DNA of 60,380 nucleotides, the filler included. It is 3 parts of 3 records of this genome, joined end to end, with 100 filler letters (N's around TTAATTAATTAA, not from the genome) between each part and the next. Parts side by side here need not be neighbours in the genome. Positions count along the whole stretch, not along the records: positions 30,063 to 43,202 come from SRR20825019_2024; 2 more parts are not named here. One strand, given 5' to 3'. The translations under genes and the position numbers were made by a program. Shown piece after piece: positions 3,365-43,451 of the stretch. The notes beneath the pieces were generated by a model. The model made no database searches and was not told the DNA's origin. It worked only from the letters and a program-made list of their open reading frames with translations. Position 1 is the stretch's first letter; the number at the start of each line of letters is the position of its first letter.

Positions 3365-6171
3365 TTAGTCGTCATACTGTTCGACAGAACAGAGGTTTGA
3401 GCTTACAGCAGCATTCCTTAGTCCCGTCGCATGCGCAGATTTACCCCGCTTTAACTTAGCAAGACATACGAAGTGGCGCCAGCCTGCAGCAATTTTGTAC
3501 ACCTGCTTGTCTTCCAAACCTTCAAGGACTGAGAATGTCAGGTTTGTATTGGCCTTGAAAATGCCTTGGTAGGTTGAGCCGGACTCGGTGATGGCCAAAA
3601 CACAGTTATCTCCACAAGCAACTTCGCGGATTCTATGCCCCTCTATTGAAATGAACCGAGGGTAGAGCGATTCCACAGGTGGCTTCCTGTGCTGATGGAT
3701 AGTTCCCTGAGTTGTCATCAGGTATACATGTCCGTTATCTGAAATTGTACATCAGTAACATGGCAGCTTCATTGGTCATCCACACGCACCTGTCAGCCCC
3801 AGCGTGTGGAAGCTCCCACAAGCAACCGACTTGACTCCCTTGCGTTGCAATTCTACAACCATCCTAGGAGTCCGCTGATCATACTGGTCACCGTGCCCAA
3901 GTTGACCGTGCATTCCCCATCCCCAAGTATATAGCTCTCCATCAGCTGGACAACAGCTTGTCAAAATGGACACAATATACAGTCCCCAAATACTTACTTG
4001 AAATGGCCACGCTGTGATGCCCAGCGGCACACACTGAGCTGAAGCATCTCTGAAACTCTTGCACATGCGTTGGCTCGTGCCTGTCCTTCACATCATCGTG
4101 ACCAAGTTGCCCCTCTTCTCCGCGGCCACAAGAGTATATATCACCGATATCGGAGACCAACAGTGTGTGCGCCTCGCCACAGGCCACCCCCACCACATTG
4201 ATGTCTAGGAGCTCAGTAAGAACGTAAGGGAAGTTCCGGTCCTTTGTATCTCCTAGGCCAAGCTGGCCGTGATCATTCTTTCCCCAAGCAACAACCTCAC
4301 CACCATCTGTGCATATGACGCAGTGGCTTTCTCCACAAGCGATTTCGGTGATGTCTTGCTTGTCCACACGATCAATAAGTGTAGGCGTCTCCTGCCCATG
4401 CTCCCCTTCCTCATCCGCCAAAGTGCGGTGACCTAGCTGGCCATGCTTGTTGCTACCCCATGAATACAATTCACCATCTTCAGTAAGCACCAGCGTATGT
4501 GCACCACCACAGGCTATCTTCTTGACGCGGTTCTGTAAGAACGCGGTCACAACTGTTGGAAATGCAACACTGTTGCGGATTTCAAGTCCCAGTTGTCCTT
4601 CTAACCCCCTGAGCGGGACGTCAGCGACGGATCGAAACATGAGCACAAGAAACTACCTTCCCCATGAGTACATAGTCAGATTCTTGATGGAACTCAAAAG
4701 GTTTCCCCAAGCATCCCCGCCCAGTGCATCCGGCTTGATTTCGTCTGCAATTTGCTAATCAATAAAACATATCAACCCCTATAAATAGCAACATACTCGT
4801 AGAGGATGTACGGCGGAAGGCGTTCATCATAGTCGCGGCAATGGTCTTGCGACGTTCGGCCTTGCTCTTCTCCTCCTTCTTGCGGGGGTCGCCTTCGACT
4901 TCAAACTTGGGGAGCTGCGAAGGAATACTGTCGTTGTTCTCCTGCTCGCGAGCCTCAACCATTACTTCAATAGATAGGGGCATAGACATGCGCCGATCCT
5001 TGCTTCTGTTCTGTGGGGGCGTATTCTCGTTGGTAGGGCTGTCCTTAAAGCCTTCGATGACGGCATTCTTTCCGGTGCGGGGTCTCGAGAGCTTCATTTT
5101 CTCCAACTTTTTCTTGTTTTCTTCCATTTCCGTCACTGCCTTCCTCTGTTATATAACTTCAGCACAATCGCAGACAAATACAAATGAAGGCTGGCCTACC
5201 CTTTGGGCTTTTCGTTCTGCCTCATTGGCAAGAGGATCAAGGTGGGTCGCGCTAGATGGACGAGACGACAAAGACATGATGGGCTGTATATCGAGCATAT
5301 GGTACCCCAGCTTCTTCTTGTTGGCAGGTGGGGTCGTGTCTGAGTGCCTGTAGTTGTACTCGTTCAGGAAGGAATCCGTCGCGTTCACTTGGACCCTGAA
5401 GTTCCTGTCAACCTGAACACGTGTGTCAGATCCAGATAAAGGCTACAGAAATCAACATACAATCTTGGCGTTGTCGCGCTGCCATCTAGGCACGCCAAAC
5501 TCGTCTTCTGCAAGAAGGCTGCTGGAATCCTCATGATAAACCGAGCCTCGCCTACGTCCGTCGGTGTCGTTAAGACGTGGTTTAGGCTTTGCCTTTTCCT
5601 CCTCAGCCTGAAATTTGTAAGGAATAGCTCATCTCAACAAAATATGGGATACCTTTGGTTGCTGCCAGGTGACCTTCCTCTGCTCAACGTTGTCTTGATA
5701 CACAGAAGGCCAAGCGAGCTCTTCAGAAGTGTTGGACATGAAGGAGTTCACATTGTGTATCTGCCCTGTCCTATCCGCAAAAGGCGATCCTCCATATGCT
5801 GGGCGGCTTTGTGGAACAGCGGTCGATGCCCTTCTGCCATAAAGCTTTTCTCCAGGTGAAGGAGTGTTCGCGATATTCTCCTTAGACGCCTGCTGCTCTA
5901 GGAATTGCTGCCTCTTCGATGGCTTCAGAAAAGGCATATTATGGTTTCCCGCATTGGGAATATGCACGCCAGAACTCACAGACTCCAACGAGTCATTCTT
6001 CTCCCTTAGGCGGGAGGAGAATGGTCTCGCCCTGGAGTTCAGTGGCCTGGCGCTTGAAGGGCGCACCTCTGCTAGCGACATGAGTGCTACAGAATCTCAC
6101 GGTCGAAGTCTCGACTATATATCCACCCTCAGCATCATACGGCCGTGAACGCTAAACACTGACATGTCCAT
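3365..6171 (-). CDS. RCC1-repeat (beta-propeller) protein with long low-complexity N-terminus (multi-exon)
   Basis: Repeated IACGxxHTL / YSWGxNxHGQLG motifs in ORFs 3942-4646, 3776-4066 and 3365-3718, joined to upstream Ser/Pro/Arg-rich exons by GT-AG introns. Start is 6171 or 6081. Confidence 0.85.
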
Positions 6172-29962: not shown

Positions 29963-30061
29963 NNNNNNNNNNNNNNNNNNNNNNNNNNNNNNNNNNNNNN
30001 NNNNNNTTAATTAATTAANNNNNNNNNNNNNNNNNNNNNNNNNNNNNNNNNNNNNNNNNNN
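29963..30061. other. Artificial contig joint (N spacer with TTAATTAATTAA stop linker)
   Basis: N runs flank TTAATTAATTAA at 30007-30018; composition switches from eukaryotic to AT-rich bacterial. Confidence 0.97.
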
Positions 30062-33000
30062 NTTTTTCAATCAATAACAAATTTATTATTGGATTGTTCA
30101 CACTTTCCTTAATTATAGGAGGAATTTGGAGCATGACCCAAGTCCCAATAGATGCGGTTCCAGACATCACTAACAATCAAGTTCAAGTAATCACGCAGTC
30201 ACCAAATTTGGGTACTGAAGATATTGAACAATTTGTAACCTACCCTATTGAAGTTGCACTTAGCAACCTTCCAGATGTCCAAGAAATTCGATCTGTTTCA
30301 CGCTTTGGTCTTTCGGTAGTGACCATCGTTTTTGATGATAAAATAGGGACTTACCTACCACGACAGCTCGTTTCAGAAAAACTTCCAGAAATACGCGAAC
30401 AAATTCCACAAGGTTTTGGGGAGCCAGCAATAGGACCAATTTCTACTGGTTTAGGCGAAATCTATCAATACACATTGGAAGTAGAAGATGCGTTCCGTGA
30501 AAAATATTCATTAACTGAATTGCGAACCATTCAAGATTGGATTGTTCGTAGGCAAATGGCTATGGTTCCAGGTGTGGTTGAGGTTAACGCTTTCGGTGGA
30601 AATAAAAAACAATACGAAGTTATTTTAGATCCAAATGAACTTTCAGCAATTGATATCACAATTACTGAAATTTATAATTCCCTTGAAAACAACAATCAAA
30701 ACACTGGTGGAGCATACATTGAAAAAAACCACCAAGCTAATTTTATTCGCGGAGAAGGACTTGCTAGAACGGTTTCAGATATTGAAAACATCGTTGTTAA
30801 GAATAGTAATGGTATTCCCATAAAAATAAAAGATGTTGGTGAAGTGACTATTGGTAGTGCTGTTCGCTACGGCGCACTAACAAAAGATGGAAAAGGCGAA
30901 GCTGTGGGCGGAATGATATTAATGCTAAAAGGAGCCAACTCGAATAATGTAATTGAAAACGTTCGAGAACGGATGGTACAAATTCAAAAATCATTACCCG
31001 AAGGAATAACAATTGAACCTTTTTTAGATAGAAGTGAACTCATTGCAGAAACTACTGGAACAGTAAAAAAGAACCTTTTGGAAGGTGGTTTGATTGTAAT
31101 TTTTGTATTGATTTTACTGCTTGGAAATTGGCGTGGAGGTTTAATTGTGGCATCAACAATTCCGTTATCACTTCTCTTTGCTTTTATTTTAATGAATGTG
31201 TTTGGCGTTTGGGCAAACCTAATGAGTTTGGGCGCAATCGATTTCGGAATAATCGTAGATGGCGCAGTAATAATAGTAGAAGGCACTGTATTTACAATAT
31301 ATAGTTATGTTCTAAAAAAGAAAACTGTAAACAAAGAAACACGCAATAAAATAGCCGCCAAAGCATCCAAAAAAATGATGAACACAGCCTTTTTTGGTCA
31401 GCTTATTATTTTAATTGTGTTTCTTCCTATACTCGCTTTGGAAGGTGTAGAAGGTAAAATGTTTCAACCCATGGCGCTAACCTTTATTTTTGCTATGGTT
31501 GGTGCTATGTTTCTATGTTTAACGTATGTGCCAATGGTTTCGGCACTTTTTCTTCGAGCTCCAAAAAATGAAAATTCTGAAAATAAAGGTTTTGGAAATC
31601 GTTTTGTACGTTGGACAGAGCGTAAATATGAAACAATTTTATTAAAATCATTAAAAAAAAGAAAAGTAATAATTGGTTCGGCAATTGCACTTTTTGCATT
31701 AGCAATACTTGTTTTTATTAGGATGGGTGGCGAGTTTATTCCTCAATTAGATGAAGGTGATATTGCTTTTCACGCCTTGTTAAAACCAGGAAGTTCGTTG
31801 ACAGAAACAATAGAAACAACTACAAAAATTGAACGAATTATTAAGGCAAAATTTCCTGAAGCAGAACATATAATCAGTAGAATTGGAGTTGCAGATGTTC
31901 CGACAGACCCAATGCCAATGGACATTGCAGATGTTTTTGTTATTCTAAAACCTACAAATGAATGGATTTCAGCTACTTCAAAAGACGAACTTCTTAAAAA
32001 GATAAAAGATGCCATAAGCATTATCCCTGGAGTAAATTTTGAATTTACACAACCTATTGAAATGCGTTTCAATGAATTACTTACAGGTGTTCGCGAGGAT
32101 GTAGCCATCAAACTTTTTGGAGATGATTTAGAAATTCTTGCCAGTAAAGCTGAAGAAATGGGGCGGATTATTGCAACCGTTCCTGGCGTAGCAGATATGA
32201 AAGTTGAAGCCACGGAAGGACTACCACAAATAACCATCAATTATAACCGAAACAAACTAGCGCAATATGGTTTAGAAATAAATAATCTAAATGAAATTGT
32301 ACAAGCAGCCTTCGCTGGTGGTATTGCTGGGGTAATTTTTGAAGGTGAAAAACGCTTTAATCTTGTTGTTCGTTTAAAGGCAGAAAACAGATCGAGCATT
32401 GAAGATCTTCAAAATTTATTTATAAATCTTCCTTCAGGTGCGCAGATTCCTTTACGTGAAATTGCAACTATAAGTTATGAACCTGGGCCAATGCAAATAA
32501 GTCGCGATAACACATACCGAAGAACCTATGTTGGTATCAACATTCGCGATAGAGATGTAAAATCTGTGGTTGAAGACATTCAGAAAAAACTGGATGATGA
32601 ATTAAAACTACCCAGCGGCTATTATATTCGTTATGGCGGTGCTTTTGAAAATTTGGAACGCGCAAGCAATCGACTAAAAAGTGTTGTCCCTATTGCATTA
32701 TTATTAATTTTCGTTCTTATCTATTTCGCTTTAAAATCCTTCCCGCAAACACTCATAATTTATTTGGCAATTCCAATGGCGACCATCGGGGGTATTTTTG
32801 CCCTTTGGTTAAGAGATATGCCTTTTAGTATTTCTGCAGGAGTTGGATTTATCGTTCTTTTTGGAGTAGCGGTACTTAATGGTTTGGTTATGATAAGTGG
32901 TTTAAACGAATTAAAAAATGAAGGCGTAACTAGTTTAAAAGAAAGAATTATTCAAGGTACAAAAAGAAGAATTAGGCCTATTATGCTTACCGCTTTTACC

Positions 33001-40133: not shown

Positions 40134-40748
40134 CTACACCAAACTGAATATGGCAATGGCATACAAATAAAAACGTACAAAACGAAGTAAGCCAAATAAC
40201 AGGTAGTTTCTAAATTTATAGTTTATCATTCCAGCCGCCATACTCGTCATTGAATAAGGAATAGGTAATAATGCTCCTACAATAATTAAAAAACCTCCCC
40301 ATTTTCTAATATGCTTTAGATGTTTTTTCATCTTCCCTTCCATATACGCATACACTTGTGGTATGTTAAAAATCCATTTTCCAATAAAATAAGAAATGAT
40401 TCCCCCTAAGTAAGATAAAGTAGCTAAAAGTGTTAAATACACTAATGGTTCAGGCGTTTTATCACTCCAAGCTATGAAGATTTCTGGTGGAACAAGACCT
40501 AATAATGATTCAGAAGCTAGAAATACTAGTAGAACTGTTATTGGAGCAAATGTTTCAGTTATATAGGTAAATAGATTGCTAAAATCTACCACATAAAGAT
40601 CTACAACAATTAATGCTGCAATTAAAAGAACGATTGGGATAATCGCTTTTTTAAGACTTTGACCCACAAATGAATAAAAACCCGTGTATTTATAATACAA
40701 ATGGGTTCGTTTCAATTTGCTTGTTTCAGTTTTCTTCAATGTGCTCAT
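40134..40748 (-). CDS. YqaA/DedA (VTT/SNARE-associated) membrane protein
   Basis: SESLLGLVPPEIF, GALLPIPYS, RFVRF motifs. Confidence 0.8.
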   Translation of the reverse strand: MSTLKKTETSKLKRTHLYYKYTGFYSFVGQSLKKAIIPIVLLIAALIVVDLYVVDFSNLFTYITETFAPITVLLVFLASESLLGLVPPEIFIAWSDKTPEPLVYLTLLATLSYLGGIISYFIGKWIFNIPQVYAYMEGKMKKHLKHIRKWGGFLIIVGALLPIPYSMTSMAAGMINYKFRNYLLFGLLRFVRFYLYAIAIFSLV

Positions 40749-40829: not shown

Positions 40830-40904
40830 GTTAATTGTATGTTAAACCAATTTTATTTCAAATAAATTTCCAAAAACAGCACTCAAATGTTAATAATTAG
40901 TTAA
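40830..40904. promoter_or_regulatory. Two GTTAA-N6-GTTAA direct-repeat pairs (response-regulator-like boxes)
   Basis: GTTAA at 40830/40841 and 40889/40900, both with an 11-bp period. Confidence 0.45.
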
Positions 40905-40929
40905 ATCATTACTTTGTAATACATAGTAC

Positions 40930-40955
40930 TGTAACATAACTATCAATTGTGCGTC
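40930..40955 (+). promoter_or_regulatory. ECF sigma-type promoter TGTAAC-N16-CGTC
   Basis: tgtaac ataactatcaattgtg cgtc, ending 31 nt before the ATG at 40987; fits the AAC/CGT ECF consensus. Confidence 0.65.
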
Positions 40956-40986
40956 TTTTAAGTATAACCCAATAAATATAAATATT

Positions 40987-41073
40987 ATGAGAACTTTAGA
41001 CAGCAACCTATTAACAGACAAAATGAAAACTTCAAAATCGTATTCTTGGAATATGAAAAGAAGATTTCGCTAA
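40987..41073 (+). CDS. 28-aa microprotein A: MRTLDSNLLTDKMKTSKSYSWNMKRRFR
   Basis: A-rich leader with A at -3; 14/28 identical to the next ORF, with synonymous codon differences. Confidence 0.75.
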   Translation: MRTLDSNLLTDKMKTSKSYSWNMKRRFR

Positions 41074-41106
41074 AAAAATTAATCCTAAACTTTAAAAAAT
41101 AAAATT

Positions 41107-41193
41107 ATGAGAACATTAAACAACAATGCACAGCAACACAGACCTAATAATTCCAAAGCATATATGTGGAATTTGAAAAGACGTTTTAAATAA
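41107..41193 (+). CDS. 28-aa microprotein B: MRTLNNNAQQHRPNNSKAYMWNLKRRFK
   Basis: Starts exactly 120 nt after A, same length, shares SKxYxWNxKRRF. Confidence 0.75.
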   Translation: MRTLNNNAQQHRPNNSKAYMWNLKRRFK

Positions 41194-41225
41194 CGAAGAC
41201 TATTAAAACCAAAAATTAATTAGCC

Positions 41226-41354
41226 ATGAAAACACTAAGAAACACTATAAAAAGAATAAAATGCGGGTCTCAAAAACAGCATACATTAAACTTTGTAAAC
41301 CAACACTTATTTGATGACCCTACAATTAAAAAAACATGCAGACACGTGTATTAA
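41226..41354 (+). CDS. 42-aa microprotein C: MKTLRNTIKRIKCGSQKQHTLNFVNQHLFDDPTIKKTCRHVY
   Basis: Third ORF 119 nt after B, similar M[KR]TL start, A-rich leader, followed by a terminator. Confidence 0.55.
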   Translation: MKTLRNTIKRIKCGSQKQHTLNFVNQHLFDDPTIKKTCRHVY

Positions 41355-41378
41355 AAAATATAGCAACCAAAACTGACT

Positions 41379-41415
41379 AAAGCTGGATTGAAACAAATTT
41401 CATTTCAGCTTTTTT
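41379..41415. terminator. Probable bidirectional intrinsic terminator
   Basis: aaagctg-gattgaaa-caaa-tttca-tttcagcttt-tttt between the convergent microprotein cluster and the DUF1456 gene. Confidence 0.65.
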
Positions 41416-41710
41416 ATTTTCTAGGGTTTGGATTGTATTTACGAACTGGTTTTGCTTTAGGCTTAGGTTTTATTTCTTTTTTTTCGGGCATTGGGCCACG
41501 TAAATGAATAACCAAACCATTTAAAAAATTACGAAGGAACTGATCGCCACACTCCACATATTTTTCATGGTTTTCATTTCTAAAAATGGCTCCCAACTCA
41601 CTTTTTGTAACTGCAAAATCTACCAAAGCACAAATTTTCACAATATCCTCATCACGTAGTTTGTGAGCTACGCGAAGTTTTTTCATTATATCGTTATTAG
41701 TTAAAGCCAT
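41414..41710 (-). CDS. DUF1456 (YehS-like) family protein
   Basis: MALTNNDIMKKLRVA...ECGDQFLRNFLNGLVIHLRG. Confidence 0.85.
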   Translation of the reverse strand: MALTNNDIMKKLRVAHKLRDEDIVKICALVDFAVTKSELGAIFRNENHEKYVECGDQFLRNFLNGLVIHLRGPMPEKKEIKPKPKAKPVRKYNPNPRK

Positions 41711-43202: not shown

Positions 43203-43302
43203 NNNNNNNNNNNNNNNNNNNNNNNNNNNNNNNNNNNNNNNNNNNNTTAATTAATTAANNNNNNNNNNNNNNNNNNNNNNNNNNNNNNNNNNNNNNNNNN
43301 NN
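43203..43302. other. Artificial contig joint (N spacer with TTAATTAATTAA linker)
   Basis: Linker at 43247-43258. Confidence 0.97.
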
Positions 43303-43451
43303 CGCATAGCAGAGTTTGGTTTCTTAGGTGTAGTAGTATATACACGCGTACAAACACCACGACGTTGTGGGCACGAATCCAAAGCAACCGATTTACTCTT
43401 CTTGGTTATTTTGGTTCTTCCTTTACGTACTAATTGTGAAATTGTTGGCAT
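43303..43451 (-). CDS. rpsL: 30S ribosomal protein S12, 3'-truncated
   Basis: [12 protein letters not shown]...[24 protein letters not shown]. Confidence 0.97.

Follow-up and report, generated by a model that had tools for sequence, protein, structure and literature searches.

In this study, we describe three very small genes that lie next to each other on the plus strand of a 60,380-base stretch of DNA (in the following the window), within the part coming from SRR20825019_2024. They are preceded by a promoter of the type served by extracytoplasmic function (ECF) sigma factors (40930..40955), which is composed of the −35 element TGTAAC (40930-40935), a spacer of 16 nucleotides (nt), and the −10 element CGTC (40952-40955) and was recognized as a unique match and by its conservation. 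The first open reading frame (ORF), ORF A (40987..41073, +), encodes a basic microprotein of 28 amino acids (aa), the A-type paralogue (family profile E = 6e-18), and ORF B (41107..41193, +) the equally long and basic B-type paralogue with HRP in its middle (E = 1e-16); both have orthologues, those of ORF A in Aequorivita-type loci. ORF C (41226..41354, +) encodes a basic helical microprotein of 42 aa, which has 43-45 aa in relatives, and is supported as a conserved ORF, by its ratio of nonsynonymous to synonymous substitution rates (dN/dS) and by an AlphaFold2 model. The group ends with an intrinsic terminator (41379..41420, +), formed by a hairpin (41379-41412) and a U-rich tail, which abuts the stop codon of the convergent DUF1456 gene. 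The hairpin has a folding energy of −13.9 kcal/mol (z = −4.2), and 0 of 200 shuffled sequences folded as well. It had been missed by a simple terminator scan because it contains too few G-C pairs, and a hairpin with a T-run 3′ of ORF C is also present in the related loci that were displayed.

ORFs A and B have 14 of 28 residues in common (50% identity), their start codons are 120 nt apart, and at conserved residues they use different synonymous codons (ACT/ACA, AAC/AAT, TCA/TCC, AGA/CGT). A preliminary description of this DNA had named the promoter, the three ORFs, this spacing and identity, and the hairpin, all of which were located as claimed. Bounded by TGTAAC-N16-CGTC and the hairpin terminator, the three ORFs constitute one unit. 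The same ORFs, with the same lengths and the same promoter, were found again in dozens of other genomes, and judged by this recurrence the pattern is far beyond chance.

For the detection of relatives, DUF1456 loci of a species collection were gathered, the closest of which belonged to Aequorivita genomes and metagenome-assembled genomes (MAGs). Nine of the ten closest loci and that of Altibacter lentus carried the same small ORFs beside DUF1456, while in A. sinensis (L006 / G004), also among the ten, small ORFs were not found beside this gene. A profile of the A/B family was built from 20 peptides and used for a six-frame search of 401 evenly sampled Flavobacteriaceae genomes (E ≤ 0.001), in which 139 genomes had matches. 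Among the matches listed, nearly all span positions 1-28 without an internal stop, and many matches are arranged as arrays with a period of 115-170 nt. One A/B locus was present per genome, rarely two. In a phylum-wide sample, 4 of 401 genomes matched, three of them being Flavobacteriaceae already known and the fourth showing a weak partial match. The genera named among the matches in 5.8 billion proteins (see below) were Aquimarina, Mesoflavibacter, Mangrovimonas, Ulvibacter, Formosa, Gaetbulibacter, Tamlana, Hyunsoonleella, and Yeosuana, and all genera named among the matches are marine.

A profile search of 1.84 billion representative proteins yielded 70 relatives, all of them not longer than 84 aa, so that none is fused to a larger domain. 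Some of these were exactly 28 aa long, most were N-terminally extended by mis-called starts, and a few ran on. In 5.8 billion proteins, 188 matches of 15-86 aa were obtained, whose source names, where given, were 'hypothetical' or 'uncharacterized', and a 43-aa database form (P0079) used as a single query recovered its own cluster alone. In Pfam and NCBIfam, no family was found for ORF A or ORF B, and ORF C gave a chance-level match alone (E = 0.09). PADLOC and PHROGs contained no match to the three microproteins, Rfam no match near threshold to the operon region, and of 38 pattern matches in viral contigs none was confirmed. In the ESM Atlas, there was no usable match for a 31-aa family member, and matches to ORF C scored below 0.9 and fell into unnamed clusters. 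The genes had been described as unannotated, which agrees with the lack of a curated family and with database copies that are called 'hypothetical protein' at best; the minimum gene length of common gene callers exceeds the 87 nt taken up by 28 codons and a stop. A literature search, including a full-text search for the peptide sequences, found no paper on the operon. The widespread uncharacterized microprotein operon is new, while its general kind, small proteins under alternative-sigma control, is known. By its distribution among the sampled genomes, it is a self-contained small-protein operon specific to Flavobacteriaceae.

Evidence for a coding nature of the 28-aa genes was obtained from the variation among their copies. 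All significant hits in the fetched loci had methionine at profile position 1, except two degenerate copies. In 69 of 74 distinct nucleotide versions, a stop codon followed directly 3′ of codon 28 (57 TAA, 12 TAG); the other 5 ran on with short overruns, and longer tails occurred only in variants outside this set. The entropy by codon position was 0.78, 0.67, and 1.13, i.e., the third position varied most. Both TCN and AGY codons were used for Ser16, both AGR and CGN codons for Arg25 and Arg26, and AAT (39) and AAC (35) for Asn22. The alternative sense frames were closed, the +1 frame in all 74 versions and the +2 frame in 57. The aligner consensus of the family reads MRTLDSNQLTxRxxTSKxYxWNxKRRFR, with M1, W21, N22, R25, and R26 being invariant in 67 sequences. 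Median dN/dS of the A/B family was 0.26 (1445 pairs), and within the Aequorivita-type set values of 0.23 for ORF A, 0.27 for ORF B, and 0.06 for ORF C were obtained. The preliminary description had argued for selection on the peptide and had proposed a profile search across Flavobacteriaceae together with dN/dS as a check. This was carried out, and the conserved starts and stops, the retention of length and motif in the matching genomes, the use of both serine and both arginine codon families, and the synonymous bias bear the argument out. Judged by these substitution patterns, the operon contains three separately initiated small ORFs that are under purifying selection as proteins.

ORF C is conserved as part of the operon equally with ORFs A and B, as seen from the loci compared, and had been undervalued before. 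In 35 of 37 loci, the last 28-aa gene is followed at a distance of no more than 200 nt by the ATG start of an ORF of 43-45 aa, compared to 100 of 3700 shuffled sequences (2.7%). Its dN/dS, determined from ten 44-aa orthologues of Aequorivita-type genomes, indicates the strongest constraint of the three ORFs. Between genera, the identity falls to about 15-40% with the length being retained, as are a basic N-terminal stretch (MKTLRNIxKRxK), a DP pair near position 34, and RY near the C-terminus; in locus L008, the start codon is GTG. The AlphaFold2 model of ORF C contains helices at 4-28 and 32-38, with a mean predicted local distance difference test score (pLDDT) of 73.9 and values of 83-90 over the first 20 residues. 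Eight database relatives were found, all hypothetical (Aureitalea, Yeosuana, Pukyongia). The UniRef label 'Transposase' on one of the ORF C relatives was rejected, since nothing else supports it.

The fixed length of 28 codons would also suit cis-acting arrest or leader peptides, in which the nascent chain controls the next ORF or the fate of the messenger RNA (mRNA) and the free peptide has no role. Twenty-eight codons roughly correspond to the capacity of the ribosome exit tunnel, the invariant residues W21, N22, K24, R25, and R26 are located near the C-terminus, and the N-terminal half is predicted to be unstructured. However, there is no larger downstream gene that could be controlled, as the terminator ends the operon and the next gene is convergent or variable. 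Moreover, up to 4 tandem copies occur, the coding part of the RNA outside the terminator has no excess or alternative structure beyond that of shuffled sequences (z = −0.21), and ORF C is under strong purifying selection over its whole length. We therefore regard control by nascent peptides as improbable and the ORFs as genes for small proteins.

The conserved layout of the operon consists of the promoter, one to four tandem 28-aa genes, one 43-45-aa gene, and the terminator. One copy of the 28-aa gene is present in 9 loci, two copies in 21, three in 6, and four in 1. In Aequorivita-type genomes, the closest relative of 15 of 17 copies is found in another genome, and by this relationship A and B are old paralogues there. 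In other genera, 28 of 47 copies have their closest relative within the same array, which points to repeated local duplication or gene conversion. In locus L092, one copy has an internal stop and was left out of the alignment, and one degenerate copy lacks an ATG; 28-aa copies are thus both born and lost. The proposal that A and B are paralogues expanded by tandem duplication is in agreement with these arrays. A distant paralogue of 39 aa was observed at a second locus of an Aequorivita genome (L078; G003:C28:145119-145184, +), which has retained WNSKRRFH, has a different N-terminus, and bears an 11-residue tail.

Bacteroidota do not use Shine-Dalgarno (SD) pairing. The 25 nt before the 74 starts consisted of 54% A and 3% G; 68 starts had A at −3 and 72 had A at −12, and an upstream ATG within 25 nt of the start was found in none of the 74 versions. 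These values confirm the A-rich, SD-less leaders noted before. They also agree with the A(−3) rule and AUG depletion known from ribosome profiling of F. johnsoniae, as far as described in the relevant passages of that study, where A at −3 is a positive determinant in Bacteroidota and AUG is depleted near starts (PMC6847099).

In the window, TGTAAC-N16/17-CGTC has a single match, compared to 0.05 matches expected from shuffled sequences. Upstream of the first 28-aa gene, the motif is retained in 37 of 42 distinct loci, with a spacer of 16 nt in 36 loci and 17 nt in one, and with CGTC as −10 element in 35 and CTTC in two. The distance from CGTC to the ATG is 29-36 nt in 31 of the 37 loci, and transcription probably starts near 40961-40964, 6-9 nt after CGTC. 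Among the 5 loci lacking the motif are a contig end, one locus with a degenerate first copy, and isolated copies. In an Aequorivita MAG (L007, about 4857-4966, minus strand), GAAACCT heptamer repeats were observed in place of the ECF motif before a B-type ORF, and the other copy of this locus is divergent.

Directly 5′ of the −35 element lies a block (40889..40929, +) with at least 80% column conservation across 37 loci of several genera. It holds GTTAA direct repeats at 40889-40893 and 40900-40904, 11 nt apart, as well as TACTTTGT (40910-40917) and CATAGTAC (40922-40929). The genes could therefore be real and their driver not an ECF sigma factor, with the GTTAA repeats and TACTTTGT as the working promoter or activator site and TGTAAC/CGTC being secondary. 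In favor of this, the 41 nt preceding the −35 element equal the ECF elements in conservation and are unique to the microprotein operon, other sites with the ECF motif lacking them, and TACTTTGT fits the TAnnTTGY 'SM5' box given for F. psychrophilum in the passages on its promoter motifs (PMC9723704). On the other hand, TGTAAC and CGTC at a distance of exactly 16 nt have been preserved across genera, with a spacer sequence that is free to vary, as expected of a sigma recognition site, and the core motif occurs again before the gene of an ECF sigma factor itself and other intergenic targets. A driver other than an ECF sigma factor consequently appears very improbable to us, and transcription from the ECF-type promoter is preferred.

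The extended motif CTGTAAC-N16/17-CGTCT was found at 6 sites in Altibacter (G005) and at 2 sites in an Aequorivita-type genome (G332), the reversed control giving 0 in each. One of the sites in each genome is located 9 nt 5′ of the ATG of a protein of 195-196 aa with Sigma70_r2 and r4_2 domains, the best NCBIfam matches of which are to the SigW and RpoE types and are sub-threshold. This ECF sigma gene, which is not present in the window, is followed by a gene for a transmembrane anti-sigma-like protein of 129-134 aa without a Pfam family. Altogether, the motif is located 8-9 nt before the ATG of the ECF sigma factor in 5 of 7 genomes (G005, G332, G401, G264, G209) and precedes the microprotein array in 7 of 7 of them, in line with the ECF-type promoter proposed earlier. 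ECF sigma factors commonly transcribe their own operon, and since the motif precedes the gene of this sigma factor, the latter is likely the driver of the microprotein operon.

Further genes behind the motif encode a CarboxypepD_reg/Plug outer-membrane protein, an M61 peptidase lipoprotein, a rhodanese-like protein, a MacB/LolD-like ATP-binding cassette (ABC) ATPase with an FtsX-like permease, an unknown protein of 84-85 aa, and a membrane microprotein of 42 aa. Another target is a conserved ORF-less transcript of ~105 nt behind the ECF-type promoter (L119:1372-1500, +; L135:1369-1499, +; L152:1371-1498, −), which ends in a G+C-rich hairpin and a U-run and is nearly identical in G005, G264, and G401. 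About 160 nt beyond it, a second promoter copy drives the CarboxypepD_reg/Plug outer-membrane protein. The consensus fold of the ~105-nt transcript has 31 pairs and 1 compensatory change; it had no Rfam match at threshold and no copy in the window. The 42-aa ORF was observed in G005 (L114:1343-1468, −) with a predicted membrane helix, the same promoter, a similar leader, and a hairpin following it. Its start MNTLEN... resembles the MRTL/MKTL of ORFs A, B, and C, and no Pfam family was found for it. In the spacers following the 28-aa genes of many loci (e.g. L082, L089, L099, L103), a CATCAATCAA-like G-free motif precedes the next start codon by 20-40 nt; other genes behind the ECF-type promoter have it in their leaders as well, and it may serve to enhance translation or to bind a protein.

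Among the closest known counterparts by description are the SM6 promoters of F. psychrophilum. According to the main-text passages of Guerin et al. (2021), these have a CGT box at −10, are attributed to an ECF sigma factor, are strongly induced in low-nutrient conditions, and precede an ECF/anti-sigma pair, an ABC ATPase, the rhodanese YceA, and the putative RNA Rfp11 (PMC9723704). F. psychrophilum belongs to the same bacterial family, and the kinds of targets reported in these passages are those found here behind TGTAAC-N16/17-CGTCT. Rfp11 is a putative regulatory RNA without coding potential, and small ORFs are not mentioned in the main-text passages concerned (PMC9723704). The SM6 set includes a small non-annotated transcript, whereas small ORFs are present here, and the link between the two sets is an analogy. 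By analogy, the ~105-nt transcript may be the counterpart of Rfp11.

The occurrence of Rfp11 among the SM6 promoters, as given in those passages (PMC9723704), and of a structured ORF-less transcript of ~105 nt behind the same ECF-type promoter in three other genomes would fit an operon transcript that is mainly a regulatory RNA, either alone or with a dual function, and in which the ORFs are secondary. In A/B, codons 1-4 and the synonymous sites are also under more constraint than in ORF C. Yet the variation of the 28-aa genes described above, with both serine and both arginine codon families, a variable third position, and closed frames, is protein-like, and the structure of the RNA is no better than that of shuffled sequences, which argues against a structured RNA, as does the lack of an Rfam match. 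In its pure form, a regulatory RNA would also not account for start and stop positions that are the same in 69 of 74 versions. We consider a main role as RNA highly improbable. A comparable case is Pos19 of Rhodobacter sphaeroides, in the available part of its description an RpoE-dependent, stress-induced small RNA carrying one small ORF (PMC5036791). It is likewise a short ECF-regulon transcript encoding a small protein, but it belongs to a different phylum, has no sequence relation, has a documented RNA role, and carries one ORF, as far as stated there. The operon described here, in contrast, combines tandem paralogous ORFs with a further small gene and lacks RNA structure.

The net charge of the 28-aa peptides ranges from +4 to +9 (median +6), and they are composed of 16% R, 11% S, 11% T, 11% N, and 9% K, with little Gly/Pro and 1 Cys in all copies pooled. 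When they were checked for features of type I toxins and membrane microproteins, no hydrophobic transmembrane segment was found, and there was no signal peptide. An AlphaFold2 prediction from a family alignment headed by the 32-aa variant of L008 gave a helix at 17-26 (block pLDDT about 79) and an N-terminal half without structure. On a helical wheel inspected by eye, Y19, position 23, and F/Y27 share one face and W21 is placed among basic residues. A complex prediction for ORF C and the 32-aa A-type variant of L008, with alignments unused, gave a score of 0.00 (mark 0.34). The candidate reading of K17-x3-W21 as a Lys-Trp crosslink motif was ruled out, as K17 is replaced in several genera.

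Multi-peptide bacteriocin operons contain tandem paralogous short cationic Trp-bearing peptides, and an example is aureocin A70 with its paralogous, leaderless, cationic ~30-aa Trp peptides, which are hydrophobic/amphipathic and encoded in tandem beside transporter and immunity genes. The peptides described here resemble these in being tandem, leaderless, cationic, Trp-bearing, and ~30 aa long, but they are rich in R/S/T/N/K and have neither a hydrophobic core nor transporter or immunity neighbors. Despite this likeness and the variable peptide middle, we judge precursors of ribosomally synthesized and post-translationally modified peptides, leaderless bacteriocins, or signaling peptides that are handled by enzymes or transporters encoded elsewhere to be highly unlikely, as a comparison of 30 loci gave no conserved neighbor coding for a modifying enzyme, a peptidase-transporter, or immunity, a Gly-Gly leader motif is missing and Cys, Gly, and Pro are scarce, the C-terminus rather than a leader is conserved, a membrane-active helix bundle would require much less polar peptides, and viral contigs and defence-system libraries contained nothing similar. 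The earlier suggestion of precursors processed by an unlinked enzyme accordingly found no support in gene neighborhood or composition.

A functional analogy is offered by the DUF1127 proteins of alpha-proteobacteria, e.g. CcaF1, which are small, arginine-rich, controlled by alternative sigma factors, and reported RNA binders. Very small size, basic character, and alternative-sigma control are alike, and the analogy concerns function only, as the microproteins here have no Pfam match to DUF1127 and differ in length, motif, and taxon. On the basis of the features described, the following mechanism can be proposed. An autoregulated SigW/RpoE-like ECF sigma factor, encoded elsewhere beside a small membrane anti-sigma-like protein, probably transcribes the operon. 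The start at TGTAAC-N16-CGTC probably gives an mRNA of ~450 nt with a leader of ~25 nt, on which ribosomes are likely to initiate at each ORF via G-poor, A-rich leaders with A at −3. With much less certainty, the products would be cytoplasmic and act as stoichiometric binders of a conserved polyanionic target such as RNA, the ribosome, or an anionic membrane or protein surface, for which the invariant C-terminal helix from S16 to R26 (W21, N22, K24, R25, R26) would be the contact surface. During the ECF response, having several copies in tandem would increase their dose. The trigger might be nutrient-poor conditions, by analogy with the SM6 promoters of F. psychrophilum, or envelope stress; induction by stress is suggested by the promoter type and the same analogy.

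Taken as a whole, the data are best explained by a real small-protein operon of Flavobacteriaceae that is probably transcribed by an ECF sigma factor, and each of the alternatives discussed meets at least one contrary result. Several observations weigh against this interpretation. The assignment of the sigma factor follows from motif sharing and the usual autoregulation of ECF sigma factors. Two of the 7 genomes (G173, G395) do not have the exact pattern before the sigma operon, and a shorter pattern was modestly enriched over the control (9/1, 10/5, 5/4, 13/3, 11/4). Of the 139 genomes with the microproteins, 88 have the anti-sigma-like gene, compared to 79 of the 262 genomes without them, but this odds ratio of 4 comes from a single-protein query over the 401 genomes without phylogenetic correction and gives weak support. 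The upstream block is a candidate for a second promoter, and may be the main control element or a regulator site. A/B show less synonymous divergence (0.33-0.36) than ORF C (0.61), a hint of additional nucleotide-level constraint or gene conversion in A/B. The profiles of ORFs A and B matched no PDB chain profile, ribosomal proteins included, and ORF C gave chance-level matches alone (E = 0.78 and above).

With respect to function, it is conceivable, though doubtful, that the products are cytoplasmic basic effectors of the ECF response that bind a polyanionic target via the C-terminal helix. The more specific idea that ECF-induced 28-aa WNxKRR[FY] peptides and a 44-aa helical partner dock on the ribosome or RNA and reprogram translation or RNA turnover is unlikely. 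If it were true, the operon would encode a family-wide stress effector, the protein arm of an ECF response beside a conserved ECF-dependent small RNA, in bacteria that do without SD pairing.

Flavobacteriaceae are major degraders of marine organic matter, and the family includes fish pathogens. To our knowledge, little is known about their stress regulons. Genes that are mostly missing from annotation seem to be driven here by an ECF-type promoter that is among the most strongly conserved ones of the family and whose motif marks an ECF regulon across genera. Even if their function should be trivial, there are three real genes to be annotated in about a third of the sampled Flavobacteriaceae species. 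The operon provides a target for asking what the small-protein arm of the ECF response does, as well as for studies on the translation of an SD-less polycistronic mRNA with very short ORFs and on the birth and loss of tandem microprotein arrays.

The genes flanking the operon vary between genera, as found in the 30 loci examined, and the operon is independent of its neighbors. In the window, these are a gene for a VTT/DedA-type membrane protein (40134-40748, −) and the convergent DUF1456 gene (41414-41710, −), both assigned by family match. In 8 loci, the gene immediately 5′ of the operon has the same orientation and encodes a conserved protein of 218 aa with a signal-peptide-like start and no Pfam family (e.g. 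L016:4741-5394, −; L083:466-1119, +; L097:1908-2561, −); its place is taken by the VTT/DedA-type gene in the window. Masked N runs, four of 44 bases each, are located at window positions 29963-30062 and 43203-43302, and those at 43203-43302 break a primary-sigma-like ORF (42867 onward, +) and an rpsL-like ORF (43251-43451, −).

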